A DNA stretch of 64,000 bases, from NCBI GenBank assembly GCA_044892525.1, contig CM097885.1:100068001-100132000 (forward strand), given 5' to 3'. Below are positions 32,601-64,000 of this stretch, one piece after another. This DNA is from Schmidtea polychroa (Eukaryota). The stretch's first letter is position 1; every line of letters begins with the position of its first letter. The notes beneath the pieces are model-generated. The model was not told where the DNA came from and ran no database searches. It saw nothing but the letters and a program-made list of their open reading frames with translations. A program made the position numbers and the translations under genes.

Positions 32601-35600
32601 ATTTTCGCACATCATCACTAGCCATTCTGTTAATTAGTATTTTTTTAATTACAATTTTAATCCTATTAATCATATTCTGGATGTTAGGTGAGGTGATCCT
32701 ATCATTTTTCATGAGGCATTCAATCATGTGGCATATAAAGAAGGCTGATTCATTAGGAGTGCTGCATCTAGGATATTCGGGGTATTGAAGATGGATAGTG
32801 ATAGGGGAGACAATTTTCTGTAGGTCTAAGATGGTTTCAAGGATACTATTGGCAAGTGAAAGGTGGATAGAAGGACTTTCATCGGTTGTAGGGTCAATAA
32901 GTACTGCCAGCTTTCGGCGTTTGTTTAGGAAGAAGAAAAACCAATTGTCTTTAGCATGACACATTGGCATGATGATCTCGTTCCAATCAGAGAAGTCTTT
33001 GAAAGGAAAGGTTTCAAAGAAGGTCTTGTAGTTGTGTTGTATAAGAGCGTTACCTATATAGGGGTCCACGAAGATGGTGGTTGGTCTGATGGCAAAGGAA
33101 AAGATGAAGGCCTTGATAGAGTGCTGTGACCATCATGCAGCCTCCTTATCAATATTATTAGTAAATAGTATATTGTCAGGTATGTCCCTATTTATGATTT
33201 CATTATTTAGAGGTGATAGGATTGCCTCTTGCGTATCCAGAATATCATTAAAAAGGTTATTTTTAGTATTAATATTTACGTTATTACTGTAGTCATTATT
33301 CACGGGGCTATTAAAGGTCTCCTTATTGGGGTGATGATCCTCAATATGGTTTTTGGAGTCCTGATATTCTATCCACTCTCCACAGAAGCAATTAATTTTT
33401 AGATTGATGTCGAATTTTAAATTTTTATGATGTTTTATCATATGTGTATTTATTGTATCTAAAGGTGTGTCAATGTCGAAGGATTGGAAGCACTTGTTGC
33501 AGTTTTTGTTTAGATTGTGGCATAAAAAACGGTTTGTGGAAGTAATTTTCAGGGTAATAGTCTTAAGGAAGTCCTTGTTTACACTACAGTGGTGCTCAAA
33601 TTGGTCGATGTGGTTATATAGGTTTCTAAGGGTGATGGTGTTCAAGGTAGATCGGCTTCCTTCCCCTTTGGGTCTACATTGGTGGCAGTCGATCAAAGAG
33701 TCGTAGGTTATAGCGATGTTGTGAATTTCTTGGACGTGTGACCTAATCCTATCAATATCAGTGGCAGAAATTTGTCCACAAAAAGAAGTATGGTGGCATC
33801 CACGGCACTGTAATTTGCCCCGTAGATCAAAGTAGTATAATATTTCATCATTTATGTCTTTGGACATTGTATCTTTATTTATTATAGTTTTTCTCGTCTT
33901 TATGAGGTCTAAGGTGGGGGGTTTAAGAGTGTACGTTTTACCTCTAACCTCTAGGCTTTTTTGGAATTTTATGTCGTTTCTGTGGTGGATGGGAGTGGAT
34001 GTGGTTGCGTATTTTGGTGTCTCTTTAGCAGAGGGTATAGTTTCTTTCAGGTTTATAAGGTTTGGTGATTTACGTTCAGTGTTTTCGACAGGGATAAGCC
34101 TTTAGGAATAGGGTATGATCTATCAAGGTCAATGTTTTCGGAGGAATGAAAGTTGTAGGTTTTCTTTTCTTGCCTAACAGGGGTTATGGTTGCAGAGTCA
34201 TCTAGCGGTGATGGTCTAACTGAGGGATATATTTTGGGTTCCTCAATTGAGTCGGTAGGTAGGGTAAGGTTATAAGAGTTGGATTTCTCAGGCAGAGGAG
34301 GTGAGGGGTTGTTAGTAAGAAGGGCTAAGAGAGGGGCGTTTGAGGAAGGAGGTTCATTGATAGAGCTTTGGTCAGAGGCACTGCTAGAGAGTACGACGTC
34401 ATCACAGTCGGAGTTGAATAGATCGCTTGGGTATTCTGGAGGTCTAACATCCTCTCGGTCTGATATAGGGGATTCTATTGTGTCGTCAAAGTAGCAACTA
34501 TAATGTGAGGTATCTATACTAATTTTGGAGTGTTTCGAGGAGGAAGTGTCTATTTCAGAGTCATTGGGGATTGATGAGCTGTAGGTTGATGAGTTGTCCT
34601 CATCTATATTGGAAGAGACTGAATCGTATTTTGTGTTGAGAACTTTTGTTCTCTGTACTTTCTTGAGCAAGTTTTCATTAGGGCGAATTTCTTTGGGAGC
34701 AAATGGGTTTGGAATTGGTTTTGAGTAGTGTGTTCTATGCGAGGTGTTGATGTTAGTCTTTTTGCTAGTGGACTGAGTGTCAAGGTTGTAGCCTAGTTTT
34801 CTCGGTTGTCTTGGAAAATTGACAGATGTTTTAGGAGGTTCATTAATTTCATGACTATTGGTTTCAATAAGGGCAGCATATCTATTATTTATTAGTCTAT
34901 TATTCAGGTTGTTATTCTTCTTATGGGGGTAGGTGCTTTCAGGGAGAGTGGATACCATATCAGTGCTCAGGATACATTCAGGGGGTTCATTTCTGACAAC
35001 GTTCACATTAGTGTCATAAGTAATCTTTGAATTATCAAGCTTCCTTTCAACGTTGGTATTTAGTGGGATCTTGGGTAGTTCCCCCCGATTACTGTTATAA
35101 GCTTTATTTATTATATTATTATTAGATAAAATATTGGCAAATAGATATGGGGTAAATTGTTTGTAATTTATTGATAGAATGTAAAAAAAATTTTTAACAA
35201 TATAAAAATTATTATTTCTATTATTATTTTTTAAATGACAGTGTAAGTCCTTGAATAGGTTTCTAATTAAATTTTTTAGGATGTCATATGAATTTTGATT
35301 TATTTTGGTTATCGTATTATATAGGTTGGGTATTAAGTTAATATTGAATGGCGCAGTTTCTTTAGTATTATAGGTATTTAATATATCTATTAAAATGAGG
35401 TAATTCGTGTTGAGGTCAATAAAAATGGATCTATATATTTGCGGGAGCACTCTTATATTATCTTCTTTAAGGAATATGAATTGTTTAGTCAATTCTCTGA
35501 AAAAATTATCGCCTATATTTCCTAGGTATGTAAAGTTGACCTGAGTCGTGGTATTTGCTGGGTTTAGAAGGGGTTTATCGATGGGATGTGAAATAGGTTT

Positions 35601-38600
35601 AGAGCTAAGGCTGGTATTCTTATTAAGGTTTAAGATTTGGGCATACTTCATAGTTGGGACACGGTTGGGTGTACGTTTCTATGGGTCAATAGTTGGTCTA
35701 GTACTAATATTCTCTGGGAGTCGGCCTCGGGCCGACGAGCTGCGTAGCGGCATCCTTTCGTCCTCCAAAGGAGGACGAAAAATTTTTTTGCTTTCATAAT
35801 TTCTGGAATAATTTTGGTCTTTTTTAAACAAATCTTTTTTAATTAAATTATCGCCATTTTTAAATTTATTTAATTTGGTATTTATATTAATATTATTTAA
35901 GTTACTTTTTTCATTTAAAAAATATGATTTTATGTTTACGGATTTATTTTTAAGGTTTTTCTTTACTGGGTTTTTATAATTATTATTCTTAATTTTATTT
36001 TGATTAAAAATTTTATCTTTATTAAATTTCACGTGTTTATTTCTATTATAATTTAAATAATTATGTTTATCAAATAGTTCGTTTTCATAAAATGGGGATT
36101 TATTTCTGCTTTTATTTCTATTATCATATACATTTAAATAGTTAATTCTTTTATTGGTATTATTTTCATTAAATAAAGAGTTATAATTTTCATTAAAATT
36201 ATCTTTACTATATATTACATTTTCATTAGTTCTTTTATTATTATGAATTTCATTTAAGTAATCATTATTATAATGCATTATATTTTCATTAATTCTATTA
36301 TTAGTATGAGATTCACTTAAATAATTATTTCTATTATACATTACATTACTATTGAAATTAAAGTTAGAATTGTAAAGATAATTCTGATCATTAGTTACCT
36401 TCTTTTCCCATGTGTCCTTTATTCGAAATAAGGTGTTTATGAATTTATTGTGTTCATTTTGGTTGATAGGCATGCCTCTGCATTGGGGCATAACCAAGCA
36501 GTAGGCGTAATTGAATGCTTTCAGACTGGCCTGTTGAATCTTGTGTCCAATTCGGTTCCAGTATTCTAGTAGTGTATCGTCAGTTAGATATATCCTTCCT
36601 GAAAGATAGTTAACGAGTTGATTAAAAATAGTGAACTCATGGATTTCAGCCCAGTGCTGTATGAATGTTATATCTGAGGAATAAAATTTTTTTGCTTTCA
36701 TAATTTCTGGAATAAAAAAAAATTACAACCATTTATTTATTATGTACGATAATATTTAATACAACATATTTCAAAACTTTGCAGTTTCTATAATCTAAAA
36801 AATCAAAAACATTGCATTATAAGAAGCACACAAATTTAATACACCAAACACCACTGAGAACCATTTCCTATAATATAACAAAAAAATCAATAATCTTACA
36901 TTATAGAAACATACATACTTACTTTGATTTCACGTTGATGTTCTCATTTATAGCTCAATGAGATACATCTTATATTATAGAAATCTGAAAAGTGGAAGTA
37001 AAATTAAAAAATGCACACAAGCACAACACATAATAAAAAACACATACAAACTTTTGATTCGTAAAATTGTAACGATGATAATAATTCTATTTTAGACAAT
37101 TTTTAGAAAAAAAAGATCGTTGAAAATTTTTTAAATTATATTTTTAATGAAAATATCAAGAGCAGATGAATTTGGTTCAAAATCTTTTTACTCCAGATTT
37201 GATTTCCTTTAAGAATCCCCTCATATTGAGCTCAGAAAAAAAATTACAAAAATTAAAAAAATTATTCTAATCCGCGATTTTTCCCAAAATGTTTTAAAAA
37301 AATACATTGATTGATTTATTTATTTAATTAATTATAATTAAAAATATATCGGACTCACAATTTTTCGAAATAATTCCAAAATACTTTAATAAAAGACATA
37401 AAATTCCTAAAAAAGCCTGAAAATTAATTAAAAATAATTTATAATTATATTGTTGATTAAAAGTAATATTTAAGAACTTGAATAATGACCTCATATCCAT
37501 ATGGATCAAAATTCAAGTCTTAAAATTTACTTTAAATTTAATATCTTACCTGAAAACCATTTCTAAAATGGCTAAAATAAATTTCATGATGAGTAATTCA
37601 TACGTAAAAAAATTATTGACAACTTTGAAAATTCATCAGTAGTAAATTGGTGAGTGAGCAATTGCTCTACCACCACTATAGAGAATGTATCTCAGTGGTG
37701 TTGGTAATTTTACACCTGTTTGCAGGATATAATAACCTCTGTAATATAAAAAAAATAAATACTCTAACAATATGAAAACACAAACTTACCTGTGTGTTGA
37801 ATGTTAATGTTTCATGAATGACAACATAGAATTCGAGAAAGGAATAGAAAAAAACTTTGTATACACTTCTTTGAGCTTCTCCAAGATGGTGGTACTGTAA
37901 ACTCTTATCGATACACAGATTTCATTTAAAATGGGATGACGTCACTTAACATTGATGTTGTGCGAAGACACTTGATTTTTCGTATGAATGATAAAGCTAC
38001 TCCGCAAGAAGTTATTGCCACTAAATGTTGTGTCAGCCATTTTATTCCACTGGTGTGAATTTGGATGACCGGTGCATTTTCAAGAAAGTTGAATTCTTTG
38101 GAAGAAGCAAATATTTTGAAAATATCAATGAAACAGTGTCTTCTAGAGTTTAAAGCTGAGTTTTCCCTAGGGAAATTAACAAAGGAACTTCAAAAACCTG
38201 GAAAGCATTGTGAAGAATTTATTAAACAAAATGAAAGCTATACATAAACATTGTTTGCATTTGTTGTTTATGATAAATATGTTCGGTTTTATAAATGGAA
38301 ATTTTTTGGGACACCCTGTAATAATAATTAGATAATAGGGTTTTTGATATCCACATAAATAATAAATATGTTTATGATGTATTTGGAAGTCGATTTGTGG
38401 ATGTATGCAAGTTGGGCTCTAGTGGAGTAGGCACTGCCAAGGTGGTGCTAAAGTTTATTTGATTTTAAAAACAAAGTCCCGGAGAAAAATTCGCTACATT
38501 TTTTGTATCTCTACGTTGATAATCAAGCACGAGATGAAGTCTCCAAATTTGTAAAAAAAAATTATAATTTATATTTACAATTACAATTTTATGCAAATGA

Positions 38601-42796: not shown

Positions 42797-44041
42797 CTAA
42801 ACTGGGGGATCAGATTTCAATTTTCGAAGATCTTCAATTATAATTTTGAAATTGTTTTGCCACATTTGTAAATCTTTGTATAATTTTGTCCATTGATCTG
42901 GACCAAATGAACGCGGCACAGCTCCAGAAATTAAAACCTTTTCATTTTGTTGATCTAATTTGCATGTAACCGCTTGTTGTCGCACAGCTTCAATGACAAA
43001 TGCTTCAAATTCCTCCCTTTCCAATTGTAATTCTTTTTGAATGGTACCATAAGACAATTCAGTTGTATCTCCGGCAGCCAATGTCATTAAGGAAAGTATT
43101 CGGATTTTTGTCATACATGCTTCTTTATCCAATCCATATTTATCCATGAAATCCGGATGGGTATCAAGAAATTTTCTATAGTCGTTAATTGTTCCACTGA
43201 CAAATATTGTTAATAGATCATGGATTGGTTCACCAGTTAAACATTGGACAGGCTTTAATTCGAGAATTTGATCCATGGTCAATGCATTAGGATCTTGCAA
43301 AGCTGCAACAATACATCTAATGGCATCATCCCGAGCATTTGCTGCTCGGTCATCAGTAAATGAACTTAACAACATCATCATACTCTCTGTTGCATATCTT
43401 TCTTCGTGACGCTCAATAAAAATTCTATTAAGTTTGCTTAAAATGTTTTGAATTTGTTCTTGATTACATTGCCATTCTTTCAACCATCCTGATATTTCCT
43501 TTAGATTGATGTTAATTAAATGTTTTTTATCGCTATTAATTTCAGCGTTTAACAAACTTTCATAAGTTTTTATTTTTGTTTCATTTTTTGTTAAACCAAG
43601 AAACAATGAATTAAGTACAAATCTTTTAATTCTTTCTTTTTTCTCATTGTTGCACATTTTCTTTTCAAGAACTTTGCAAAATGGTTCTACAAAGTCAGTT
43701 TGAATATCAGGTTGCATTAACAAAATTAAGGATACAACTGAATTAATAATTCCACCCATATCTAAATCAATTTAGTATTAGTACTTTCATTTCTAACAAT
43801 TCATATCTAAACCTGTATCAGATATCTTATCTTCGAACAAAAGATCGATATTGTTGATAATATGATTCAATGCATCGTGCCATTCTTCCCCCTGCATTAC
43901 GACATCTAGGCACTTCTCATTATCATGGAAGTATTGAAGAATTTCAGATACCTTTAAGAGAATGAATATAATGCATATTAATTTATCACTGTAATTTACT
44001 TGAATAAAATCAGAAGTTTCAGTAAAAATAGACACACTCAT
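42797..44041 (-). CDS. eIF3m: Eukaryotic translation initiation factor 3 subunit M; join(44041..44000,43951..43813,43761..42797), 381 aa
   Basis: INSVVSLILL, ARDDAIRCIVAALQDPN, LKPVQCLTGEPIHDLLTIFVS, KIRILSLM, EAFVIEAVR and SFGPDQW match eIF3m along its length; 48- and 51-nt GT-AG introns, phases consistent. Confidence 0.95.
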
Positions 44042-48220: not shown

Positions 48221-49592
48221 AAAAATTTTTTTCGTCCTCGAAATATGTTTTGATGTGTTTTTGGTATTATTATTATTATTTATTTATTTTTGTTTTTGCT
48301 GTTGTTCTTTTCGTTGTTCTTATCATCTAATAAAAATTTCACTTAATTATTTAACTTTAATAAATATTTTCTTTCATTTATATAGACTTTATATATAATT
48401 ATTTTAAAATGGATTAGTCGCAATATAATTTACAGAATATACGTAAAAGGCATTCATCAAAAATTCCATAACTCTAATTTGAAAATGGTATTTCTATTAT
48501 TTTTCTACAAATAAAGATTAATTAATTTTCCATGATGTGACAAGAAATCAATGATATCACTAGTGGAGAAATCGTTTCAAGAGCTCAATTGATTGGTTAA
48601 ATAATTATCTCAATTTTACATAAATTTTTCATTTTGAATTTTAAAAGTCTAATGAATTTTTTTTTTAAAAAACTAAAACTTGATATTTATAAAATATTGC
48701 TTAGGTATTAAGTATTGTTAACATTGAATTAACTCGAAATGATCTAATGTAAGTTTTGTTGATTAAATTTAAATCTTTTTTATTTTAGATATTATTGGTT
48801 TTTTTTTAAAACTCGTTTCAATGAATATATGACGTCTTTTGTTTGATAAAATTTTTTATACGAAACATTTATTTTTCAATGAATTTCATAAAACATTGTA
48901 AAAATATTTTGTCAATTTATATTTGGATTAAAATTATCAATGTATAATCAATCTTGAAATTGTTACTAGATGATAACAAATAATTTTATATGATGATTAG
49001 GAATATTATTATTAGTAGTAGCATTATTACCATTAATTTTTTATCACCCTTATTTTTATTGCTATTACCGTCATTATTATTATGTCATTAAAATAATTAT
49101 CTTTATCCTCTATCAATATTCACTTTTTATTTATTGTATTGCCGCCAAGAAAAGTCAAGCTGTTTGTTTATAACCTATCAATGTCAAAGTGTTGCTCTAA
49201 TGTTTGGAAACCCTTGCTGATAATAAAATTATCCCGATTTTGTTTCCATGATAACAATTGAATTATTAATGATCATTATATTGTGTCATCACTGAAATAA
49301 TTTGGCAATTATTATTTATTTATTTTTTTTTCATTGATTTATTTTATTTTGAACTTTGTTTTATTGATGTGCTATAATTAATTCACTACAGCCTTTTCCA
49401 CAGCATGGTAAAAAGTTCAACCACTTTTTAATCTATTCGTTAAGTCTCCTACCGCACCGACCGACTCATAATATCACTTTGTTTACTCCCCATGATAAGC
49501 ACTAGCGGTGTCACCAATTGTCGGTATTCCATTTTTATCTTTCCGCCTGATAAAAAATCTGCGATGAACATTAATATTCCGAATATCTAGAT

Positions 49593-49943
49593 CAGTGTTT
49601 CCCAACCTTTTTTAGCTCATGTCCCCCCTAGCTGAATTATTTTTTCTTTTGCCCCCCCCCTATGCAAAACATTTTACAGAAAAACATTTTAATGAAACAT
49701 TTTAATGAAAAGAATAATTTTTCGATCTATAATAAAAAGACATAAATCTAAATAAGAATTGGATATTAAAATTTCGTAGACTATTCTCGAATTTTACTGA
49801 AGAAAATAAAGAAAACGTAACCCAAACCTAAAATTAACATATAATCCCTAAAATTGAAATTGCCCCCCTGGAAATACAAATTGCCCTCCTGGAAATCGAA
49901 ATTGCCCCCAAGTGGGGCGTGGGCCCCACGTTGGGAAACACTG
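49593..49943. mobile_element. 351-bp hAT MITE nested in the Gypsy 3' region
   Basis: TIR CAGTGTTTCCCAAC; 8-bp TSD ATCTAGAT. Confidence 0.95.
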
Positions 49944-51471
49944 ATCTAGATGAATATTTAATTATCCTGCGGTTAATTAACTACCATAATTAACTACCCT
50001 GTGGTTTCTTAACGTAGCCTATACTGATAAGCTTTCTAATTAATTACCCTGTGGTTTGTTAACGTAGCCTGTACTGATAAGCGTCCTATATAAGTTTCTG
50101 CTTTACCAGTTCTCATTAGTTTTGTCTTACCAATCTTTAAGTAAGCATTTTATATTTTATTTCTTTTTCATATTTTTTTTTGCTTTTTAGTAACACCATC
50201 CCTCAAATAATATGGACGTAAGTGATTGCTTGTTTTTTTTTATTTATTGTGATTTTTTACCATGCTGTCCTCAACTATTAGTAATGCGTTCCCTCATAGC
50301 AACCGAACATTTGCAATCGCTGTCCAGGGTAGCCAAACCCCGGTGATTGCAAGTGCTCATGTTGCTTATTAAATTAACTTATTTACTTTTTAATTTTAGT
50401 TCATTAATTTGTTTATGCAACTACCTATACCACACTCATGTTTTGGGCAATATATTTTTCATTTTCATTTTGTATTCACAATAAAAGCAAACCTCTAATT
50501 ACACCTACTCGTATTTACTAATGATTGCGTTTGCATTTTCATAACAATTTTAGCCGTATTTATACTTATTTATTTATTACGTAATTCTTAAAAATCAATT
50601 ACTTCTCTGCACTAACTATTTATCGAGGGCGCCATGGTACGGAATTTTACATAGTATTTGTTTCATTTTTTTTCAGCTATTACTATTTTAGGCTGTCACA
50701 GAACCTAAGTTTGAACATTTCGATGTTATGGAATGGTTATTTGACTGACATGCTAACAGGTTTTTTAATTTCTTTTTCAGGGTCCCTTTACCACCGCGTC
50801 GAAAGGGATTGAAACGTACCTTTGACTGTGTGGATACAGGCAGTAGGCTCGAAAGACGCCCGCCTTGCAATATACGCAAGGAATGGGACTGCGGCATCCA
50901 AAGTCCCGTTCTGCTGGACTCCGATGATGAATAGAACTTTGTGAATAAATGTTCAGCATACATTTGTTTTTATTTTTTTTTGGACAGTATATCTATTGAG
51001 ATATCCGATCTACCTCTCTTAATTTATGCTAGAAAGGGTGGGGTAATTGTGTCCCTCTTCGTGATTAGTCTTTGTTCCTACTAATATGAAATTATTCCTT
51101 ACTTACTAATATTTATTGGTTATAATTTTGTTCTCTCGCCCCAGTAGGTTACCCATGGCTATTCAGTTATGCTAGTTCATTAATTACTAATCAGCCATTT
51201 AATGTTATTTATTTATAGTATTTATTTAAGGTAGTCGTTTCTTTATTTCCAACGTTTATTTAAGTTATTTGTTCTCTATTTGCTCGTTTTACTTTGTTTA
51301 TTTTTATCTATTATTTATTTATTCAATTTATCACTTGCTAATTATTTATTTATATCAATTTGTTAATTGTTTATTCATTTGATTATTTATTTGTTAATTT
51401 ACTTATATTTATTTAAACTTTTTTCGAGGACGAAAGAAACACAAACAGGGTCCGTTTAAATAATTTATTTT

Positions 51472-51717
51472 TTAGTATAATTGATCTATCTCACCCTCAT
51501 CTTCCGATTCCTCTATTTCTTCTACTCTCATCCGAAACATCGCGAAATCAGCTTCGTGTTGAAACAATAAGATTTCCATACGATCCAACCGCCTTTTCAG
51601 ACGGAAGTTTTCTTCCTCCAAATCTGTTATTCTGCCCTGCATACTACGAAACTTCTGCTTCAGTTCTTGCGTATTTGTTTTACACTCTTTGCATGACATC
51701 TCCGAGGCTTCTTGCAT
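51472..51717 (-). CDS. 81-aa accessory ORF of the Gypsy: CxxC, coiled coil, acidic tail
   Basis: MSCKECKTNTQELKQKFRSMQGRITDLEEENFRLKRRLDRME; sense to the element. Confidence 0.5.
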   Translation of the reverse strand: MQEASEMSCKECKTNTQELKQKFRSMQGRITDLEEENFRLKRRLDRMEILLFQHEADFAMFRMRVEEIEESEDEGEIDQLY

Positions 51718-51898
51718 TTTCTGAAATTAAATGATAGTCATTTTTTTATGTATCACTCTATTCGCAAAGGATCAACACCTCGCTTTGAATCCTATCAAAC
51801 AAATTACACAGTTCATCCTATGGTACTTATAAAACATGCACATTGTTGATATAATGTAATATATTTTTATACACTATTTATAGCATGCAGATCACAAT

Positions 51899-53064
51899 TT
51901 ATAGTCTTGTTTCATAATATGAATATGATGGTGGTTGAACGATAGTTAGTTGTCTCTCTTTTACACATATCAAGATGGTGATGGTTATGAATGTTATTGA
52001 TAAGATGAGAAAATCTGTTATTAAAATGTAAATGAGATATTCACAATAGTTGACTGTCAAATCCGAATTTGTCATCATTAGTTTATTTGAGTTAGGTTTT
52101 GTCGTCTCTTGGGTTGGTAATTGGAAAGGTGATGTGGTTGTATATGATTTTCGTTTCGATTCATTGATTGTCTTGACTTCCACGAAAACTGTTTGCCATC
52201 TGCCTGGTTCGGTTATCCATCGCTGATATTTAACTGTTAATTCCCATGCCGTCTCTAAATCAGAAGTGTAAAGTGTAAAAAAATGATTACCGGCATCTAA
52301 TATAGTCAGTGTTTTTTGTTTGTAGATATTAACAACTCTTTCATCATTTCCTGATTTTCTATATATCGTTACCGGTCCATTTCCAACACTCAGGGTTATA
52401 CGATTTGACTCGTCTCTGAGATAGATAGACTGGGTCTAACTCTTAAATCGTGACCATTGGTTCCTCACTACCGTTCCATTTTCGAGGCATATGTTCTCGT
52501 AGTAGTTTGCATTAATTGAATAATTTTGATTCATTTTCAGTTTCTCAAAGCGGACAAATGATTTTCGCGAGTTAAGGGTGTCGACATTTAACCCTTGAAA
52601 TGTGATTCGCACTTTCACCAAGTCCACTGGCTTCCAATATATATATTGATTCCGTTTATCTCTGGCTCTATTTCGATCAAGTTTCGCATCTCTTTTGTGT
52701 GGACTTCTATCGGAATTTGCGTGTACCACTTTGACATGTTCTGTCTCAACAGCCATTGGTATTTGAAATTTGGCTTTAACTTTCGTACCGCAAAAATATC
52801 TTTATCATAATTCAGTTCTACCACTGGTGCCTTATTGTCTAGTAAATTAATAATTTCTATTTGGTCTGCGATCTCGCATTTACAGCTCCATACTATATTT
52901 GTTAGAGTGGAATATATATGTATTTTCTCCATTCCTCGGATTTTGTTTACCGCATATGGTAAGTCGATCTTTTTGCCGCTCGCGACTGTTACTAACATCA
53001 GCGTTATTGCTACATATAATATCTTATTGATGTAGCTGACTGGTGTTGGATTTTTCGTGCATTT
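51899..53064 (-). pseudogene. Type I membrane protein: signal peptide, FN3-like repeats, S/T stalk, TM, PPxY + PDZ tail (one frameshift at ~52645, one TAG at 52436..52438)
   Basis: KILYVAITLMLVTVASG; NIVW...RKLKPNFKYQWLLRQN; MRNL...INIY/WKP...EKLKMNQNYSINA; YLIYILITDFLILSITFITITILICV; QPPSYSYYETRL*. Confidence 0.7.
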
Positions 53065-54024
53065 CTATTTCAATTTTGTTTGACCCGTTACTTTATTCTG
53101 CTTGGATCTTAAGGGGTATCTAGATTCATCTTCCTCTAGCACTAGTTTACATCGATTTGCATGCACAATCATCGGGTTAGCCTTTTTACTCCTGAATGAT
53201 AATAACTTCAAATTGGTTTCGGTGGTGTCGCACACTTTATAGGATCCTTTAAATGGTCTTTGCAATTTAGGCGATAAACCTTTGAGAGGTTCCGGTCTGT
53301 TAAGATATACTAGATCTCCAATCTTTATGCCATGCGCATGTGCTTTTTTATCGTAGGTTTCTTTATATTTCTCCTGGTTGTGCTTTATTGTCAAACCGGC
53401 TTTAGTCCATACTGACTGCATTCTTTCTTGCATCATTGCTTTATAATCGGGTATCTCCATATATTGTGAAATTGGTGGTTGGAATTTGAGATCAATCGGC
53501 ATATTATTTTTCCTTAAATACATCAAATAAAAAGGGGTCTCTCCTGTACTTTGATTTACTGCATTTCTGTAGGCAAATAGACACGGCTTTATGAAGTCGT
53601 CCCAATCTTTCTGTTTTCGGTTCACATATGATGAGATCATATTTATCAGTGTCCCATTAAATCGTTCCACTAATCCATCCGTTTGTGGATGATATGGTGA
53701 CGTATTCAATTTCCAAATTCCAAATAGGTCTGTGATTGATTTGAACATTTCGCTTTGAAAGTTCTTTCCTTGATCAGTTAACAATTTCTTTGGAGTACCA
53801 TAGCGAAATATTATGTTTTCCACAAATATTCTAGCAATCGTGTCGGCTTTTTGGTTTGGAATAGCGTATGCTTCTGGCCATTTGGTAAAGTAGTCACAAA
53901 AAACAACAATGTATTTGTTTCCTTTTGTTGTTTCCGGTAATGGTCCCAGAATATCCATTGCCGTCATCTCCATCGGTGCTGCAGGTACTGGCATCGGTTT
54001 TAATGGTACTTTAATCTTTTTTTT
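53065..54024 (-). CDS. Gypsy integrase core and GPY/F region
   Basis: AMDILGPLP, LLTDQGKNF, DGLVERFNGTL (D,D-35-E), KLQRPFKGSYKV. Confidence 0.95.
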   Translation of the reverse strand, partial: KKKIKVPLKPMPVPAAPMEMTAMDILGPLPETTKGNKYIVVFCDYFTKWPEAYAIPNQKADTIARIFVENIIFRYGTPKKLLTDQGKNFQSEMFKSITDLFGIWKLNTSPYHPQTDGLVERFNGTLINMISSYVNRKQKDWDDFIKPCLFAYRNAVNQSTGETPFYLMYLRKNNMPIDLKFQPPISQYMEIPDYKAMMQERMQSVWTKAGLTIKHNQEKYKETYDKKAHAHGIKIGDLVYLNRPEPLKGLSPKLQRPFKGSYKVCDTTETNLKLLSFRSKKANPMIVHANRCKLVLEEDESRYPLRSKQNKVTGQTKLK

Positions 54025-55595
54025 TTAACTTTTACACCAATTTTTCACGTCTTGTTCCATTGTTGGCCAAAAGTATTTCAATTTTAATCTTGATAGCGTC
54101 TTGCGCGTTGACAAATGACCTCCCAACGCTCCATCATGATACTGCATCAGTAATGCGTCTCTGTGCTTGGCTGGTATAATAATTAATGCTTCCCCATTTT
54201 TCCAACATTTAAGTATTCCATTATGAATTACATATTTGCTGTTTGCATCTGTGAGTCGTTTCCAGTCTTGTTCTTTTCTTATTTTGACCGCTTGTTCCAT
54301 AAATTGTTTTAATTCACTATCGTTTTCCTGATCATTTTGAAGTTCAGACATATCATTAACTGCTTTGATTGCAGCGAATATAGTGCCTTCCAAATTTTCA
54401 GGTGTCCCTTCACTATCATTTTCTGGGATTCTTGACATTGCATCTGCATTCGCGTTAGCTTTACCTGTCAGATATTTAATCTCAAAGTCGTATTCTTGGA
54501 GGGCAATCGACCATCGTATTAACTTACTGGCTGAATGTCTGTGTTTCATTATGATCTGTATAAACAGTAAATTTTCTGCCCAATAAATATTGTCTAAAAG
54601 TAGTAATTCCATACACTAACGCTAACGTTTCCTTTTCAATCGTTGAGTAGTTTTTCTCGTGAGGCCTCAGTGATCGGCTTGCGTATGCTATTACGTGGTC
54701 CTTTTCACCTTCAAATTTTTGTCCCAACACCGCACCCAATGCAACGTTGCTTGCATCCGTCATCAAGATAAATTGTTTTGTAAAATCTGGACATCTTAAT
54801 ATAGGAGTTGTCACTAATTTCTCTTTTAATGTATTGAAAGCGTTTTGTTGCATTTGTCCCCAAATAAATTTATTGTTTTTCTTTAGTAACGTATTCAATG
54901 GTTGTGCGATATGAGAGAAATCTTTTATAAATTTCCTGTAATAGCTCGCCAAACCAAAAAATTGTCTAACCTCATCGGCATCTTTTGGTACTGGGTACTC
55001 TTCCACTTTTTTGATGTTATCTGGGTTAGTTTGTAACTCTCGCCGTGATATTATATGTCCTACATAAATCACTTCTGCTTTGCCCCATTCACATTTCGAT
55101 GGTTTGATTTTTAATTTTGCACTTTTGAGCCGTTTAAATACAGTTTCTACATCTTTCAGGTGTTCTTCAAAATCATTTGAAAATATTATTATATCGTCGA
55201 TATATACCAATGCATGTCGAATACCTCGTAGCACATAATTCATTCCTCGTTGGAATGTAGCTGGGGCTCCTGTTAATCCAAATGGTAACACATTGAACTC
55301 ATACAGTCCTTTGCCATCCGAGAACGCCGTCTTTCCTCTATCTTCCTCTTTTACTCTAAATTGATTGTACCCTTTGTTTAAATCAATAACAGTGAAATAT
55401 CGTGCCTCTCCCATTTGATTGAACATTTCTTGGGGTACCGGAATTGGATAAGTGTCTTTCCTCGTAACTTGATTTAGCTTCCAATAATCTACGCAAAATC
55501 GTAAGTCTCCATCTTTTTTCTTAACTATCACTATTGATGAGGAGAATGGTGACGCACTATCTCGAATTATTCCAAATTCCTTCATTGCTGTAATC
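54025..55595 (-). pseudogene. Gypsy RT, RNase H and integrase zinc-finger region (small deletions at ~54545 and ~54025)
   Basis: LRFCVDY, VIDLNKGYNQ, PFGLTGAPATFQR, VYIDDIIIF, LMTDAS...GAVLGQ, YSTIEKETLA, YTDH, KLIRWSIALQEY, YHDGALGGH. Confidence 0.95.
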
Positions 55596-58114
55596 CAATG
55601 GTTCCCAACCCGTGGCCCGCCGGGCAACAAAAAAATGCCCTCTCCTCAACAAAGAAAACTAAGAAAAAATTCACATTCACACCTTCTTTGGGAAAGGTTT
55701 GTCTTGAACTTCGTTTAAAACCATGATAAAACCATGATAAAACCAGATGCCAATTTAATAATAAAAGAACTGTGTATCGATTAATTTTGCTTGGTTTTCA
55801 TCAATAATCTGATTTTATTTCAATCTTCTGATTTTTTTTATAAATTCTTTTAATTATCTAATTTGGTTAAAAAACGAGCTCGGAATTTAAAATCATGGAT
55901 AAAAGAAAGTTTGAACAAAATAAAAACTTAGCATGTCGTGAATTTAATGACGAGTGGAAAGATAGGTATATGTTTGCTCTTTGTCGTAACGGAAAGCCGG
56001 TCTGCTTGGTTTGTGGATTTAGCGTTTCAGTTGTAAAGAAATATAATATGGAAAGACATTTCAACAGTAGCCATGCAGATTTGGTCGATAAATATCCAAT
56101 GGCCTCTGATTTACGAAGGGAATTTATCGCCAAGAAGGAGAAAGGAATGAATGTCCAACAATCCTTATTTACTGCTATACTACAGCAAAACAAAAGTATT
56201 GTAATTGCATCGTATGAAGTGGCACTTCTTTTGGCAAAGAAGAAGAAACCCTTTACTGATGGAGAAGAGATTGTGAAGCCAGTTCTTGAAATAGCCGCCA
56301 GAATGCTAGGAGAAAAAAACATTGAAGCCAAGTTTAAAGATATTCCACTATCGAACAATACAATGAAAAGACGGGTTGAGGAACTTTCTAATAACGTTAG
56401 TGAGCAAATTGCATTTCACGCATCAAACTGCAAGTTTTTCTCACTTGCAATGGACGAGTCAACTGACATTAGCGATACCGCACAGGTAACAATTTTTATT
56501 CGCGCGGTGAGTAATACTTTCGAGGTTATCGAAGAGCTGCTTGGACTTGAGTCCATACAAGGGACAACCAAAGGCACAGATTTGTTTGAGGTTTTAAAAT
56601 CATGCGCAGAAAAAAATAAATTGGATTGGAAAAGGTTGGATAGCATTTGCACAGATGGTGCATCAGCTCTAACAGGCAGGCATATAGGATGTTTGTCTTT
56701 GCTCGAAAAATTTCTTGCTCGTCCACTTTTAAATTATCACTGCATTATTCACCAGGAGTCGCTTTGTGGGAAATCCATGAATATGAAGCACGTTATGGAT
56801 GTAGTAGTGAAGTGTGTGAACAAAATCCGTGCAAAATCATTGCATAGGCGAGAATTTAGACAGTTTATTTCAGAATTAGATGCTGAATATGGTGAACTTC
56901 TTCTGCACTGTGAGGTCAGATGGTTGTCAAAAGGTAAAGTTCTGTCGCGATTCTGGGATTTAAAAGGAAGTATTTTGGAATTTTTGGCGGAAATTAATGA
57001 GTTGCCTATAGAACGTGAATATCTTTCAAATAATGAATGGCTGAATGATTTAGCATTCTTGGTGGACATTACAGGGCATCTCAACAATCTAAATTTGAAG
57101 TTGCAAGCAAGTAACAATCTGTTTGCAAATCTGTGTAACTGTATTGCTTCTTTCAAAATGAAATTACAATTATTTGCCAATCAGTTATCCAAAAAAAATT
57201 GGACAATTTTCAACACATGAAAGAAAGGATGACAGGTAATGACTTTGATGAAGACAAATATAGGTGTATGGTTGTCGAACTTTTGACAGCTTTTCAGTCA
57301 CGATTCAGTGAATTTGCAGATCAGTCTGAAAATATGGCTCTTTTTACCAATCCTTTCAACTTTCCAGACAAAAGGATCAACTGCCTAGATGAGAATTTGC
57401 AACTTGAAATTATAGATCTGAAGTGTAACTCAGTTTTGAAAAGTCGATTCGCGAGCTTCCGGTTATTCCAACTGCAGATGATATGATATCATTTTGGAAC
57501 CTGCTCCCAGAGAGTGACTTTGAACATATGCGATTTTTTGCACAACGTTATGTTTGTCGTTTTGGTAGCACATACAGATGCGAGCAGTCATTTTCTGCAA
57601 TGAAATTGATTAAAAGCAAGAATCGTTCACGCCTTACTGATTCGAACTTGAATGGACTTATGATTCTGGCAACAACTAAACTTCAACCTGACATTGAAAA
57701 ACTGGCTTCTAGTATTCAGCCACAAAATTCACATTAAATCCAAATGCCTGTGAATATTTTTATTGAAATTATAAATATATTTTAACTATGATAATGATTT
57801 ATTTCGAAAATCACTATCTCTGGACTTTATTGGTGTTTTATTTAATTCACAATTTCTTTATAAAAGTTAAAAACCAATATTTATCTCTGTAAATTAATTT
57901 ACTAAACTAAAGTTACTAATCAGTAATTTGCCAATTGTAAAATATTATTGTAAATTATGTCATATAAAAAAAGTATCTTGGTTTTTTTCATCTAGGGTAT
58001 TAACTCACAATAAGGTTTCTTTTTCGCCGTTTTTTGTTGTTTTAAAAATTTTGGCCCTTCGTGTCCTCCACCTAAACAAAGTGGCCCTAGGCCAAAATAG
58101 GTTGGGAACCACTG
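55596..58114 (+). mobile_element. hAT DNA transposon (SPIN/Buster/GTF2IRD2-like), 2519 bp, inserted in the Gypsy RT
   Basis: TIR CA(A/G)TGGTTCCCAACC; 8-bp TSD CTGTAATC at 55588..55595 and 58115..58122. Confidence 0.97.
55895..57737 (+). pseudogene. hAT transposase with two frameshifts (~57210, ~57485)
   Basis: BED-like CLVC...RHFNSSH; FSLAMDESTD, TDGA, HCIIHQESLC, CEVRWLS, GSTYRCEQSFS. Confidence 0.93.
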
Positions 58115-61100
58115 CTGTAATCTGTCTATCACTTTCGTCTTGATGAACGTAGGGGGTTCTGTATGGCTTTATTTTTATTGGAGTTTCGTCTAATAACTGT
58201 ATTTCATGCTCAATTACATTGGTTAAACCTAAATCATATTCGTGTTTGGCAAAGATATCCCGGTATTTTCTCAACAGTTTTGTGAATTCCTTTTTCTGCA
58301 TCTCATTTAAATCATTGCTTACCACTTCAGGCTCCTTATACACCTTGACGTTTCTTGGTATTTTACAATTTGTTTCAATAGACATTTTTGATAATTTTCC
58401 CAATTTTGTTTTTGGGTGTAGCTGAACCGGTTTCTTACTGCTATTCGTTATATGGACTGGTACTATCTGATTTTCCACTTGGACAATTTCGTCACATATC
58501 GGTAAATCATATTTTTCGACTAGCGTTTGATTTGGTTCGAATATAAAATCACCATTATCCACACTCATGGTATTTGCACAATATACCATCTCCGATTGTG
58601 GTGGTATTGTCAATGTCTGATTCACAAACACTTCACCTGCCCTGTGAATTATTTCTCCTGTTTCTCCTGCTATCAAATTACCTGTCTTTAAATCAAGTGA
58701 GACTCCGTCCAACTGCTCTAATATATCCATGCCGATCAGACATCGTACTGGACTTCCCTTCATTATGAGCGCATCGTGCGCTATTATTCGATCTCCAATA
58801 TGGAATATGACGTTAAGTTGTCCAATTATGTTTAATTCATTTTTTGATAATGACCTCACTATTTCGTCGGTAGGCTTTATTCGCATTTTTCCCTTCGCGT
58901 TTAGTACATTTTCCGATATTATTGTGTGACTAGATCCCGAATCAACCAAAGCTTCCACTTTATGTTTGTTCATTTGTATAAATATTCGGGGTTGCTTTCC
59001 TCTTTTTGTTAATGTCATCAATGAGTAGTTGCATGGTAAGTCTAACATATTTTTTCTCTCGATCTCTGCGCTAGAAGGCTCGATTCTCTCTCCTACCATT
59101 CCTTCACATTGTAATGCGATATTTTCCACTGGTTTCATCTCTCGTAATCGATCAACTGGATACACTGGTGCTGGTTGCATAAATGATTTTGGTATACACA
59201 ATTTTGTAAACGTGTCTACGCTACTCGCATTCAACAGTGGCTCTTTTAAGATTTGATAGGTTCTTAACGCTTCTTTATTCATTCCACTTAGTTCTTGACT
59301 GTCAACATATAACGGTGCACTATCACCCTCGTTGTCATTGTCATTATTCTCGTCCCTTGAAGGGGTTGTACTAGCGTAGCTCACCTTTTTCTTCTTTAAT
59401 ATTCGAGCCTTGAGTATCTCCAACTCCTGATATTGATGATGAGTAATGAAGAATCTAGCCAATAATGGTACGCAACCAATTACTAGTTTCCACGACCAAC
59501 CTGTGATCGCGTATAATCTGTGTGTTGACAGGACCTGCGATATTATCACTTTGATTACAACACATATTACATAAATTCCAATCAATCCGGCACACGCTTG
59601 TCCAATGAACATAAACTTTCCCCAGATCTTTTTCATTGTATTATACGTCGCTTTCTTGTAATGATCTGGAGTTAACAAATACTCGTAATTCACCTTCCCA
59701 CTTCCGCTTGGGAGAATTGTATCTACCATTTCCATTATTACTCTTTCTTTCTTTGATGGAAATAACAAGTTTCTGCGAGCTTCCCCAATGTCTTCGCTCG
59801 AGTAAATTCCACTTTGCGACAATTTTTCTAACGACGTAAAATTTACCAGATATTGTAATTCTGTCAATTCTAAGTTTTCCGGTGTCTTTACTTCTCGATG
59901 ATCTGGTAATGCAATCCAAGATTCTGGTGTTAGTCTGTATAGTGGTGCCAACAATCTATTGCACTGTAATACTTTCGGTTTCACGTCCTCTTCCAGTAAG
60001 ATTCGTGTTACAGGCTCCATAAATCGCAACTTTCCATTTAAATTCACTGGTAACTCGTTGGTGCATTGGTCATACTTTGTCAGTTTAACTGGTACCGCTT
60101 TACATTTATAGCTATATAGTACTTCACCGAAAATTTTGGCAAACACCCCATTTTCTGTAATTAACATTGGTGCTACCAAATTAGGATTGGTTATAGCCAT
60201 TGCCATCCGATTTCGGAGTATTTCTTTGTTGAGATTGCAATCATTTATAATAACTTCTCGGTACACATTTTCAACAGTATTTTGACCAAAGTGAAATAAA
60301 TAATCTATTTTGTTATTAAAGTAATTTGTCAACTTGATATCTCCGGCATGTATGTTTGTTTGGGCCTCTGTAATCATTTTCTGAGATACATATATACCTT
60401 TATAATTTGTCTCATAGACATTTTGTCCACACTTTGTTTAAGTTTCTTTTCTCAGGAATCGCATCCCATCTTCCTCCGAGGTTGACATTAACACTGTTGG
60501 AGTATCTTTCATCCGTAGAGGTGTGATTCTTGTTGTTGTACTCGTTGCTGGATCCATTCTTATTTTCTCAGGCTTTTCCCTGATCTGTTCTCCCGTTATT
60601 TCTTTAAAACTCATTGACTTCAATTGCACTAAATTGCACTTTTTGGTATCGACATCGTACACCAAGATTGATTCTCCTGTCTGACAGCTAGATTGTTTTA
60701 TGTTGCAGAATGGATGTGTTTGTAGTTTACCAGTATCATCATCAAATGATCCATCAAATTCTCTTAATTCTGACATGTACTCTTCCACAACCACGGCTTT
60801 GTCAATTATAGCATCGTCTACTTTGTATGGCTCTCCTTCGCAATCACCATTCGACTTTATTATCCCTCGCACGGTTACAGTCTCGCGGATTTTGTGGTTA
60901 AGCTTTGCTTGTAGTTTAATATCTGCATTGATTTTCAACTGTCCTGTTTGAAAGGCTGCCAAACAATTCTCTGGAATTATTTCTATCGGTCTAGGTATCG
61001 ATTGCATTTTCACCATCGATGAGTGGCTCCATTTTCCACAATAAAATACAAAAGTAGTTCGTTTCACTGTACACTCTCTCACCTTTGCTCGTCGAAACCC

Positions 61101-61286
61101 CGATTCTTGATATACATGATATTTTACTGAATTTGTCACTTTAAATGTTACTGTGTATGCATCTGAACACTCTGCTACGTTTACCAACGAATATACTCTT
61201 CCCATTTCGGTTTGGGAGCAGTCGTATGCTACCAATGAATTCGTCGTGTTTATTATTCCCAATAACATAATAATAGAAATCATCAA
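58115..61286 (-). pseudogene. Env-like chuvirus/gB-type glycoprotein fused in frame to aspartic protease and the start of RT (one TAA at 60438..60440)
   Basis: Signal peptide then LVAYDC...YQ...C...YCG..SH; GEVLYSYKC..V.V...CTNELPV...FMEPVTRIL...CN.LLAPLY; GIYS.ED; TM ~59615..59538; ALVDSGSSHT and CLIGMDIL. Confidence 0.85.
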
Positions 61287-61349
61287 TCATGGAAATGCGA
61301 GTTTTCCCTTTTTCTTCACTGTCTCTGTTTTTGGGCTCTCATCCTTTTG

Positions 61350-61643
61350 TATCAACTTTTCCCATCCGCCATTGTTTGCGATCCACTTAGTCAAATATTT
61401 ATTCGTCATTTCAGTAGCTTTCTTTATCAATGATTTTTAATTGTCACTTTCCAGACAACCATAAATACCAATCTCCAATATTATATAGGCTAATACTGTC
61501 AATATTACATCTCGATCCAACTCGGTTCGTGTTAGGTCCTCAATTACTGCTTCCTCACAAAATTCCTTTTCTTCATAATTTCTTTTAATTTCTTTTAATC
61601 TCCTCTTTAATTCCGTTGCCAATCTTTTTACAACTCTTTTCTC
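61350..61643 (-). pseudogene. Bcl-2-like domain (one TAA at 61437..61439), same frame as the glycoprotein
   Basis: EKRVVKRLATELKRRLKEIKRNYEE...DRDVILTVLAYIILEI...*KSLIKKATEMTNKYLTKWIANNGGWEKLI: BH2 W-I-x3-GGW motif and Bcl-2 helix spacing. Confidence 0.65.
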
Positions 61644-62110
61644 CCCTCCGAAGTATCATCTTCTGTTTCAGTTTCATCTAACAAGTACAATTCCGTAACT
61701 AAACTTTTTAACATTCGCTCAGTCTTGCTTGATTCATCTAAACGCTCAGTTTTGCTTGATTCATCAAAACTCAACGATTCAATTTCCGCATCATTCTGTT
61801 TTTTCCGACATATCGCAATGTCATTTTTCGTTTCAACGAAGTTCTCTTCACTTTTCATCTCATCTGTGCTCGGTAGTACCCTATTATCAGTGCTCATTTC
61901 CTCGATATCCTTTGTAACTTCATTTTCCGATCCCATTTCCTCATTTTCCATTGTTTCTAATCTCTGCAATTCATTAATTTCTTGATCAATTTCTCCTGGG
62001 TCATCTACAACTTCAGTTTTAATCTCTACATTATCATTATCCGTTTCCTCATACGGAGGCCAAAACGGTACTATTACTGCATCTTTTTCCATTTCATCAC
62101 TTTGTTTTGT

Positions 62111-62771
62111 TGCGTACACATTATTAATACAATTTGGGTTACATCCGTAGTTTAACAAATATTCGTCATCATCCAATTCTCGTCCTTTGAACGTCAACAC
62201 GATAATTCCTTCATTACCTAATATCTCCGCTGCTTTTTGTCGTATTTTCTTTGCTGTTAATATTCAATCCTTTGATCCGCAATATTTAACGCTATTATCA
62301 AAGACTTCGCACTATCGTCTGCCGCCTCATAATCATGTCCTAGTTTTCGGATTACCTCTTTTAACTTTGCCTGATAACTTGTCGGTTTATTCGTATGCAT
62401 TCAAACAACCCTTCTTTCATGTCTCGATCCATTTCGATGCTCATTATGAAGTCGATACTCGCATTAATTTTTTCTCTATTCCCTGCATACAGGGTATCTT
62501 GTAAATCTGCTAGAATCTTTTCCCAATTTTGTCTGTCTGAATTCAAAGTATTAACAGCATTAACCACATTTACTTTATTTTTCCAGCCTGGTATCAGACC
62601 GCAATCTACCAAGTACTCCTCGTCTTCCAGACATCGATTCTCAAATTTTAGTTGCACTTGCCATCCACTGTATTGACGCAGTATTCGCTCCTTAAGCTCC
62701 CTGATTTGTCCGTATGCATTTACACGGAATTGGCACTTCACATTATCAAGCCCCGTCATTTCCACTATGAT
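62111..62771 (-). pseudogene. Two ubiquitin-like domains (62771..62562 and 62307..62111)
   Basis: QIRELKERIL...VQLKFENRCLEDEEYLVDCGL and AKKIRQKAAEILG...VLTFKGRELDDDEYLLNYG vs ubiquitin IENVKAKI...[20 protein letters not shown]. Confidence 0.65.
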
Positions 62772-63269
62772 ATCAGCTAAATCCCTTGTTGACCGTAAAG
62801 CCTTTTTTTGCATTTGCTTAAGTATCTCATCGTCTCTGTTTCCTTTGAATAACTTTGCACATAAATTTATGGCTCTCTTTAGTTCGCTTTGGGTTAGTGA
62901 CATCACACTGAGTTCTGCGATCCATCGTTTCAACTGGGAGTTGTCAGTTTCCATTTTCTCAAGCCATTTTTCAACTCGGGCTAACAGTGCAGTCGGATTC
63001 TCATCTGATGCGATCTTTCGCACTTTCGTGGCAGGTTTTCCCTCACCTTCTGACACGGTTCCAATTATCATATGAGATTCAGTTTCCTCATCTGATTCAA
63101 ATTTAGCCACTAATTTTTTCAGCTTCTGTCGCATTTCTCGAAATTCCTTTTCCATTTTGTCTTGAAATTCCTCTCTCTGAGCATATGTCATATTACTAGT
63201 GTTTGGCATATCTTCTTGGAATCTGATCGATTTCTTTAATATAGGTCTGCTGAATCTCTCGGAGTTCCT

Positions 63270-63685
63270 TGGGCATGATCGCGCCATGTGGCCGTATCCC
63301 TTGCACGAATGACATTGGATCTGTCCATTTGTATTCACTTTGTCCCTTTGTGGTGAAGGTGACGTTGACGATGATCTTGATCTAGTGAAACAGTTTCTGC
63401 TAATATGCCCTTTCTTTCCACATCGATAGCATTCGACATCACTGCTGATCCGTTTGTTTTCTGTGAATCTCTTGTTAGGGCTGGGATTTTTCTCATATTT
63501 GAACCAACATTGATTTGAATAGTGTTTGATTTGAAATCTGCAAATTCAACAGGGTCTCTTCCATATTGATTGACGGGTAATTTCTGGAAACTTGCGAAAT
63601 CAATCATCTCTCTATTGAGAGGCATAACAGCATTATCATTTGCCATTTTGACTTGTTTCTGACTTCTGAGGTTGTATCGGTTCAC
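63270..63685 (-). pseudogene. Gag remnant: short N-terminus joined to zinc knuckles, capsid domain apparently missing
   Basis: CYRCGKKGHISRNC and CHSCKGYGHMARSC (CCHC x2) plus a degenerate C*IC...HYSNQC knuckle, only ~150 nt after the first ATG. Confidence 0.8.
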
Positions 63686-63900
63686 TTTGAGCTAAACTTC
63701 AAACGTTAAACAATAATTTAAAATTACTTTTCAACTTCTTTTAAATCTCCCAATAATAGCCTTTAATAATCTCGTTAGCACTATTTTCACAAATTTTTCA
63801 CTACTTTCAATGATTCTCAGCCGACTTTCGATCACGTCGGTACTATTTTTTTCAATAATTATTTTTCCACTAACTTTCAGTAATTTTCCACCGACTTGCA

Positions 63901-63918
63901 ATCACGTCGGGCTAACCA
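63901..63918 (-). other. Primer-binding site, tRNA-Trp
   Basis: TGGTTAGCCCGACGTGAT vs the recalled vertebrate tRNA-Trp PBS TGGTGACCCCGACGTGAT (15/18); 7 nt from the LTR end. Confidence 0.85.
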
Positions 63919-63925
63919 AAATATA

Positions 63926-64000
63926 TGTTGGGTTTTGGATTACTTTAAGTCGGCTCTCTCTGACTCCTAGTGTTCTTTAAATCAAAACAATGAACGACCC
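63926..64000 (-). repeat. 3' end of the 5' LTR of the large Gypsy
   Basis: Ends ...AAAACCCAACA; ~91% identical to the end of solo LTR 17638..18698. Confidence 0.9.

Follow-up and report, generated by a model that had tools for sequence, protein, structure and literature searches.

Two related ubiquitin-like domains in the probable accessory region of a decayed, compact Burro-like retroelement of Schmidtea polychroa

Planarian genomes contain giant LTR retrotransposons of gypsy-like type, the Burro (GYPSM1) elements (Arkhipova and Yushenova 2019, PMC6431247). According to the passages of that paper on their coding capacity, the Gag has two or three zinc knuckles, a Ubi2/SUMO-like motif (PF11976) is situated between a MATH domain and BCL-2, and an Env related to the glycoproteins of mononegaviruses follows in frame between BCL-2 and the protease; a dUTPase-like domain lies between the protease and the RT, and RNase H and integrase come last (PMC6431247). 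ORF1 measures 4,873-5,140 aa in an element of more than 30 kb, and the cargo includes MATH, BIR and ankyrin domains (PMC6431247). In the same passages it is proposed that Burro interferes with host apoptosis and ubiquitination, and giant elements are said to be hard to study (PMC6431247). Within the literature we covered, the cargo is described only in PMC6431247; passages in PMC8532177 and PMC11410931 mention Burro without its cargo.

Here we describe an element on the minus strand of an AT-rich 64-kb stretch of the Schmidtea polychroa genome, which is the whole stretch of DNA analysed and is called the window below. Its parts follow one polyprotein path in the order Gag knuckles, helical stretch H1, ubiquitin-like domain UBL1, helical linker H2, UBL2, acidic linker, Bcl-2-like domain, Env, protease, RT, RNase H and integrase (Table 1), and the order from protease to integrase fits Ty3/gypsy LTR elements. 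The region with the two UBLs is probably the accessory part of a gypsy LTR element that is compact, Burro-like and decayed. With Burro the element shares two CCHC knuckles (two or three in Burro), a UBL upstream of a BCL-2-like domain (the Bcl-2 evidence being weak, E 0.02-0.04), and an Env between this domain and the protease, followed by RT, RNase H and integrase. As this domain order is the same, the element would be expected to work like Burro, and its UBL cargo is not new in print. The first-pass annotation, made from the letters of the window, had called ubiquitin inserts unusual in LTR elements. This holds in general but not for Burro, where the published text places a Ubi2/SUMO-like motif before BCL-2, so that an env-bearing LTR element with a UBL placed between its Gag and Bcl-2 parts has been described before (PMC6431247).

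The differences from Burro concern size and cargo. Without an inserted transposon, the element measures about 8.1 kb, or about 2,700 codons, from the start of Gag to the stop of integrase; the 5′ LTR extends off the window, and no 3′ LTR or second LTR copy was found at 48500-52000. The Pfam scan of the frames of the element returned no MATH, BIR or ankyrin domain, which could lie in accessory frames elsewhere, and this copy has no room for them between the knuckles and Env. The element has two UBLs and a helical linker, whereas the Burro passages name one motif and give no count. The term "Ubi2" in those passages resembles a family name in Pfam, "Ubiquitin-2 like Rad60 SUMO-like"; PF11976 itself was not matched in our Pfam scan of the element frames. 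Because of its size and the lack of MATH, BIR and ankyrin domains we filed the element as compact Burro-like and not as Burro1. It is set apart from Burro here by the published description and may be one of the named families Burro1-4. Its identity as the accessory region of a compact Burro-like element with two related UBLs is very likely. What we add to the published picture is modest, namely the tandem arrangement of the UBLs, the loss of the Ile44 patch and the compact host element; Figure 2A of PMC6431247 or the domain maps of Grohme 2018 may already show two UBLs or this family.

Table 1. Features of the element, listed in the direction of the minus strand
Feature	Position	Strand	Evidence and remarks
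Probable 3′ end of 5′ LTR	63926..64000	-	91 % match to 18624-18698; presumed LTR; runs off the window
Primer-binding-site-like motif, starts TGG	63901..63918	-	Sequence
Two Gag CCHC zinc knuckles	63270..63434	-	Pfam zf-CCHC E 1.4e-8, 2 stretches
Helical stretch H1, four predicted helices	62799..62996	-	AlphaFold2 single-sequence model, block pLDDT 58-79
UBL1, predicted beta-grasp, without di-Gly	62559..62780	-	Pfam, profile, model, VIA
Helical linker H2, frameshift near 62395	62330..62534	-	Collinear tblastn chain with P0001, two frames
UBL2, frameshift near 62260, without di-Gly	about 62108..62304	-	Sequence; N-terminal strands predicted from the middle frame
Acidic low-complexity linker	61640..62101	-	49 Asp+Glu in 154 residues; no Pfam family
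Bcl-2-like domain, broken (frameshift near 61640, stop near 61437)	61340..61650	-	BH2-like end
Env, Monjiviricetes fusion type	59346..61286	-	Pfam PF24664 E 3.9e-27 and 2.5e-65
Aspartic protease	58713..58979	-	Pfam gag-asp_proteas E 2.1e-8
DNA transposon inside pol, between protease and RT	55596..58114	+	Terminal inverted repeats, 8-bp target duplication; Pfam zf-C2H2_12, DUF4371
RT, RNase H, integrase, gypsy order	53065..55595	-	Pfam RVT_1 1.4e-32, RT_RNaseH_2 6.3e-37, Integrase_H2C2 7.6e-17, rve 2.7e-12

The copy is decayed, with frameshifts and stops along its whole length. Its LTR-like end, as matched at 18624-18698, terminates at CA directly before the primer-site-like motif, which we take to resemble a tRNA-Trp primer site. 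In the leader (63794-63910), a second copy of this motif, 81 % identical, lies about 70 bases downstream, and elsewhere in the window 18624-18995 and 13675-13962 are probable solo-LTR pieces of the same family, 81 % identical to each other. Near 63530, upstream of the knuckles, several hundred bases of other copies are missing here, and no capsid part of Gag was detected in this copy, which lacks the stretch that other copies have there. The BH2-like end of the Bcl-2-like domain matched Pfam Bcl-2 with an E-value of 0.038, below the cut-off, and its best PDB sequence matches were Bcl-2 chains (E 0.023); this evidence is weak on its own. This end shares one frame, broken by stops, with Env and protease. 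About 190 residues separate protease and RT, and no dUTPase family was found there by Pfam at E <= 0.1. The transposon inserted in this interval is presumably of hAT type, judged by its features, and its transposase frame is broken near 57220. Downstream of integrase, at 51475-53064 on the minus strand, there are four stop-free frames of 84-178 codons, three without a Pfam match and one coiled-coil-like, which may be 3′ accessory genes. The family is abundant: parts of the element are present in 20 of the 24 listed sequencing runs, from 11 studies, and in one of them (X1) as many as 3,249 contigs map to 2.6 kb of it.

The window contains other features as well. At 42797-43771 on the minus strand, an unbroken frame of 324 codons resembles eIF3 subunit M (Pfam PCI 6.4e-11, eIF3m C-helix 6.2e-5) and would be an exon of a host gene or a retrocopy. 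At 29866-36722, also on the minus strand, RT and C-terminal motifs point by eye to a long non-LTR-type retrotransposon in four consecutive pieces of the same frame, with single stops between them. A perfect repeat of 212 nt occurs at 28106 and 36714, and 28521-28800 is a tandem array of 35-nt units.

Reading the two UBLs depends on the path through the frames. In the three-frame translation UBL1 lies within the knuckle-bearing frame, and the frame shifts near 62395, within H2, and near 62260, within UBL2. The first-pass annotation had assumed a single 1-nt repair at about 62265. We found instead that both breaks are places where other copies carry more than one extra base, which suggests that the present copy has suffered a deletion at each. 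The extra length near 62395 was seen in three of four runs, in few contigs, and that near 62255 in one of four, together with a gapped contig of run X2 that crosses the break. In run X1, either length difference is nearly absent from the depth, perhaps because the contigs are short or because copies there carry the same lesions. The stops near 61437 and 61288 are not common to nearly all mapped depth in any of the four runs.

A protein search among 1.84 billion representatives resulted in two hits. One of them (P0002) was rejected as a tandem-repeat protein with no UBL pattern by inspection, which leaves P0001 as the only outside homologue kept from this set. P0001 is a natural protein of 411 residues, encoded on a JGI contig of 1,734 nt, and it contains in a single frame the end of a UBL, a helical linker and a second UBL. 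In a tblastn search against the window, it matched 62621-62415, 62370-62338 and 62251-62084, in this order and in three frames. The summed E-value of this collinear chain was 1.6e-7, under permissive settings with the filters off, and the middle piece alone was matched by 12 of 2000 shuffles. Other copies had been proposed as a check on the frame, and on this point the one-frame match to P0001 and the extra length in other copies support the path, though not with one 1-nt repair. As a whole, P0001 had no Pfam match and no useful PDB match; word-based protein searches for relatives gave nothing beyond it, and of the 149, 1 and 69 pattern matches in scans of metagenome and viral contigs none was confirmed as a locus. 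Beyond its second UBL, P0001 has a linker rich in Asn and acidic residues and then a C-terminal part, about 100 residues long, without a Pfam match. No BH2-like motif was seen by eye in this part, so tandem UBLs may also be combined with a different cargo downstream.

The two UBLs are real, as sequence, profile and, for UBL1, predicted fold agree, though each single test is not strong. Two segments with a ubiquitin pattern, both on the minus strand between the Gag knuckles and the Bcl-2-like domain, were recovered as first described. Against Pfam ubiquitin, UBL1 scored an E-value of 0.0035 and the C-terminal half of UBL2 0.035, both below the curated cut-off of 25.4 bits. Single-sequence searches of PDB gave ISG15 and ubiquilins as best matches of UBL1 and UBL2 (E 0.02-0.5), the C-terminal half of UBL2 matching ISG15 with an E-value of 0.022. 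A profile built from three rows (UBL1, the UBL of P0001 and the C-terminal half of UBL2) retrieved 55 PDB sequences at E <= 10. Nine of these were at E <= 0.001, namely eight ISG15 chains and ubiquilin-2, with E-values from 2e-5, for ISG15, to 5e-4. The identity of the UBLs to the solved ubiquitin-family chains that they matched is 16-27 %.

The structure of UBL1 predicted by AlphaFold2 from the three-row alignment has the order beta-beta-alpha-beta-alpha-beta (pLDDT 78.6, pTM 0.66), with strands at residues 8-15, 20-27, 49-53 and 74-81 and a helix at 33-43. When this model was compared with 48,161 chains by VIA, ubiquitin, SUMO or UBL proteins made up 46 of the 50 best rows (Z 7.1-5.8); the best match, with an rmsd of 3.2 over 76 aligned residues, stays at Z 7.1 under the caution line of Z 8. 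Foldseek gave no match at E <= 0.001, and ISG15 and ubiquilin-3 rank first in its output; its weak viral matches were ubiquitin-like proteins of giant viruses and fragments of the BVDV polyprotein. The beta-grasp fold that had been proposed as a check was thus predicted for UBL1, and on this model UBL1 belongs to the ubiquitin superfamily. UBL2 appears to be ubiquitin-like by comparison of residues; its C-terminal half matches UBL1, the UBL of P0001 and ISG15. Other approaches were less informative. An AlphaFold2 single-sequence model of 228 residues (62364-63047) had a pLDDT of 52.4 and formed no beta-grasp, and the top VIA match of its UBL1 part was an unrelated DNA-binding protein. In the ESM Atlas, the three best-scoring clusters for UBL1 alone were unnamed (0.90-0.91); clusters named for ubiquitin and Rad60-SLD (0.88-0.89), as well as a cluster with PF11976 in 22 % of its members (0.89), are leads only; the 228-residue piece gave no usable match there.

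An internal duplication of a unit of helical stretch plus UBL had been suggested, and our tests divide this proposal. The relation between the UBLs stood: none of 5000 shuffles and none of 235 control windows aligned as well as UBL1 with the C-terminal half of UBL2, and the same half aligned with the UBL of P0001 better than all 5000 shuffles. Mutual identity of the UBLs is 23-31 %. The three-row alignment has 11 invariant columns, 10 of them in the C-terminal half, and UBL1, UBL2 and P0001 have in common the pattern L.F....L...EYL...G..P...N.V. These comparisons make a common origin of UBL1 and UBL2 likely. A helical stretch of about 65-70 residues ahead of each UBL, as first noted, is also predicted, for H1 by a low-confidence model and for H2 from the translation. 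The H1 model had only generic helical-repeat matches in VIA (Z at most 8.1), among which the TFIIS N-terminal domain (Z 6.6) is unremarkable, and H2, with X at the break, aligned with the linker of P0001 in a way that 14 of 5000 shuffles equalled.

For the helical parts, in turn, the duplication found no support better than chance. H1 aligned with H2 no better than 1245 of 5000 shuffles and 91 of 236 control windows, in a control test that also missed the H2-P0001 pair (65 of 245), and 3516 of 5000 shuffles were as good as H1 with the P0001 linker. No tandem repeat over the modules exists at the DNA level, so any duplication must be old. One captured UBL may have been duplicated long ago and retained as an integral domain. 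As to origin only, we give a close to even chance to the tandem duplication of a whole module of four helices and UBL, with helical halves that have since diverged past detection. Both helical stretches are of about the same length, are predicted helical and stand immediately ahead of a UBL, and the UBLs themselves are related, all of which would fit; the failure of H1 to align with either H2 or the P0001 linker, in a test that also overlooked the known linker homologue, and the lack of a DNA-level repeat speak against it.

Gly-Gly was not found after the last strand in any of four UBL ends, i.e. UBL1, UBL2 and both ends in P0001, in line with the first description of both UBLs as lacking a terminal di-Gly. 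Lacking di-Gly, the UBLs are unfit for conjugation and should escape cleavage behind them by host deubiquitinases, which would leave any release from Gag to the own protease of the element; by-eye inspection of the domain borders for a protease-site motif gave nothing firm. The view of the UBLs as integral (type II), non-conjugatable domains in the polyprotein of an LTR element holds. The position aligned with the Ile of LIFAGK in ubiquilin-3, which we take to be Ile44 of ubiquitin, is occupied by Lys (UBL1), Thr (UBL2) and Glu (P0001). Ubiquitin binds its partners most often through the Ile44/Val70 patch (PMC7056813). With Lys, Thr or Glu at the position of the most used patch, the usual docking on proteasome receptors is unlikely. 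UBX domains carry an R...FPR signature loop. The alignment has FENR, FKGR and FQNY and no FPR, and no UBX family was among the Pfam matches at E <= 1. The recruitment of proteasome or p97 receptors, as first proposed, thus lacks the usual surfaces. Conserved beyond the core, in three sequences only, are an acidic D/E-E-Y-L loop that precedes the short helix and the residues G, P and N that follow it.

Upstream of the Bcl-2-like domain no 15-residue segment reaches a hydropathy of 1.8. The start of Env is hydrophobic (15-residue hydropathy 2.11) and follows a lysine cluster, and a strong membrane segment is found near 59585. From the lack of a membrane segment before the Bcl-2-like domain and the hydrophobic start of Env, we infer that the precursor would be on the cytosolic face of the ER. 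At 61286-61340 (minus strand), the signal-like hydrophobic stretch of Env comes after the BH2-like motif, separated from it by about 20 residues and the lysine cluster; the stretch could double as a tail anchor of the Bcl-2-like domain.

We propose tentatively, as the most likely of the roles considered though with a somewhat less than even chance, that the UBLs are integral cytosolic interaction modules. The Gag-UBL-UBL-Bcl-2 precursor would be held on the cytosolic face of the ER, anchored by the signal sequence of Env, and the UBLs would bind proteins through the face conserved among them, with the acidic D/E-E-Y-L loop and the G, P and N residues. They might pack on the adjacent helical bundles, or engage a factor of the host ubiquitin system or of cell death beside the Bcl-2-like domain.

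It is less probable, and in our view unlikely, that the UBLs have no host partner and act as structural spacers or as aids to folding, being compact units, quick to fold, which separate Gag, the Bcl-2-like domain and Env in a very long precursor. About half of the invariant positions of the three-row alignment are likely residues of the fold core, as presumed from the core of ubiquitin, the canonical binding patch has decayed, and the UBLs are little alike among themselves, which is what spacers would show. The invariant E-Y pair ahead of the short helix and the invariant G, P and N, however, partly differ from ubiquilin-3 and ISG15 and should be on the surface, and a UBL before BCL-2 is retained in Burro elements, which suggests selection beyond spacing.

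Integral (type II) UBLs are well represented by those of ubiquilin, Rad23, BAG6, parkin and UBL4A, which resemble the UBLs of the element as a beta-grasp within a larger protein and without di-Gly. The element UBLs differ from these in being internal and in tandem, without an Ile44-type patch and inside a retroelement polyprotein. That they dock the precursor, or a piece released from it, on proteasome receptors or p97 in the manner of Rad23, ubiquilin or UBX proteins, to clear an excess or extract it from the ER, is quite unlikely. The closest solved sequences and folds include those of ubiquilins, BAG6 and Rad23, two UBLs could increase avidity, and a single in-frame Gag-Env-Pol polyprotein presumably needs some control of ratio. 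Docking is opposed by Lys, Thr and Glu at the Ile44 position of the three UBLs, by the missing UBX-type FPR loop, and by the best sequence matches, since these are to the C-domain of ISG15, likewise polar at this position. Tandem UBLs also occur in ISG15, FAT10 and OASL, and the ISG15 C-domain is the nearest of all in sequence (E 2e-5) and is also polar at the Ile44 position. In contrast to these three, the UBLs of the element are about 75 helical residues apart and without di-Gly, and their resemblance to ISG15 does not have to reflect descent from it.

The ubiquitin inserts of cytopathic pestiviruses are recent captures that act as cleavage signals for a host protease. The element resembles them in holding ubiquitin-fold units in a polyprotein, as pestiviruses have one or two such copies at the NS2/NS3 junction (PMC13517609), and in the weak fold matches of UBL1 to BVDV; its UBLs differ in being old, divergent, common to a high-copy family and without di-Gly. 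That a host protease cuts behind the UBLs as processing signals of this kind, freeing the downstream proteins, is very improbable given the absence of Gly-Gly at all four UBL ends, the low identity to solved ubiquitin-family chains and the protease encoded by the element itself.

Returning to the UBLs as cytosolic interaction modules, a broader version can be put forward, which we regard as speculative and unlikely to hold in full. Burro-like elements of all sizes would share, in conserved form, a core cassette of helix-UBL-helix-UBL-acidic-Bcl-2, tethered to the ER through the Env signal sequence. Its UBLs would be ubiquitin decoys encoded by the retroelement, with an acidic surface peculiar to the family in place of the Ile44 patch, binding one host factor of the ubiquitin system or of apoptosis. 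Together with the viral Bcl-2 they would help the host stem cell to survive during particle formation.

Our analysis sharpens the anatomy of this part of the element: its two UBLs have diverged, are not fit for conjugation and lack the usual binding patch, and they belong to a family of high copy number that is about half as large as Burro1. It also narrows the candidate mechanisms, as a modifier, a cleavage signal and a canonical proteasome shuttle all look unlikely. UBL1 is an unbroken domain of 74 residues that can be tested alone. If the reading of the UBLs as decoys in a core cassette is true, the compact family would be a minimal, testable version of the giant elements.
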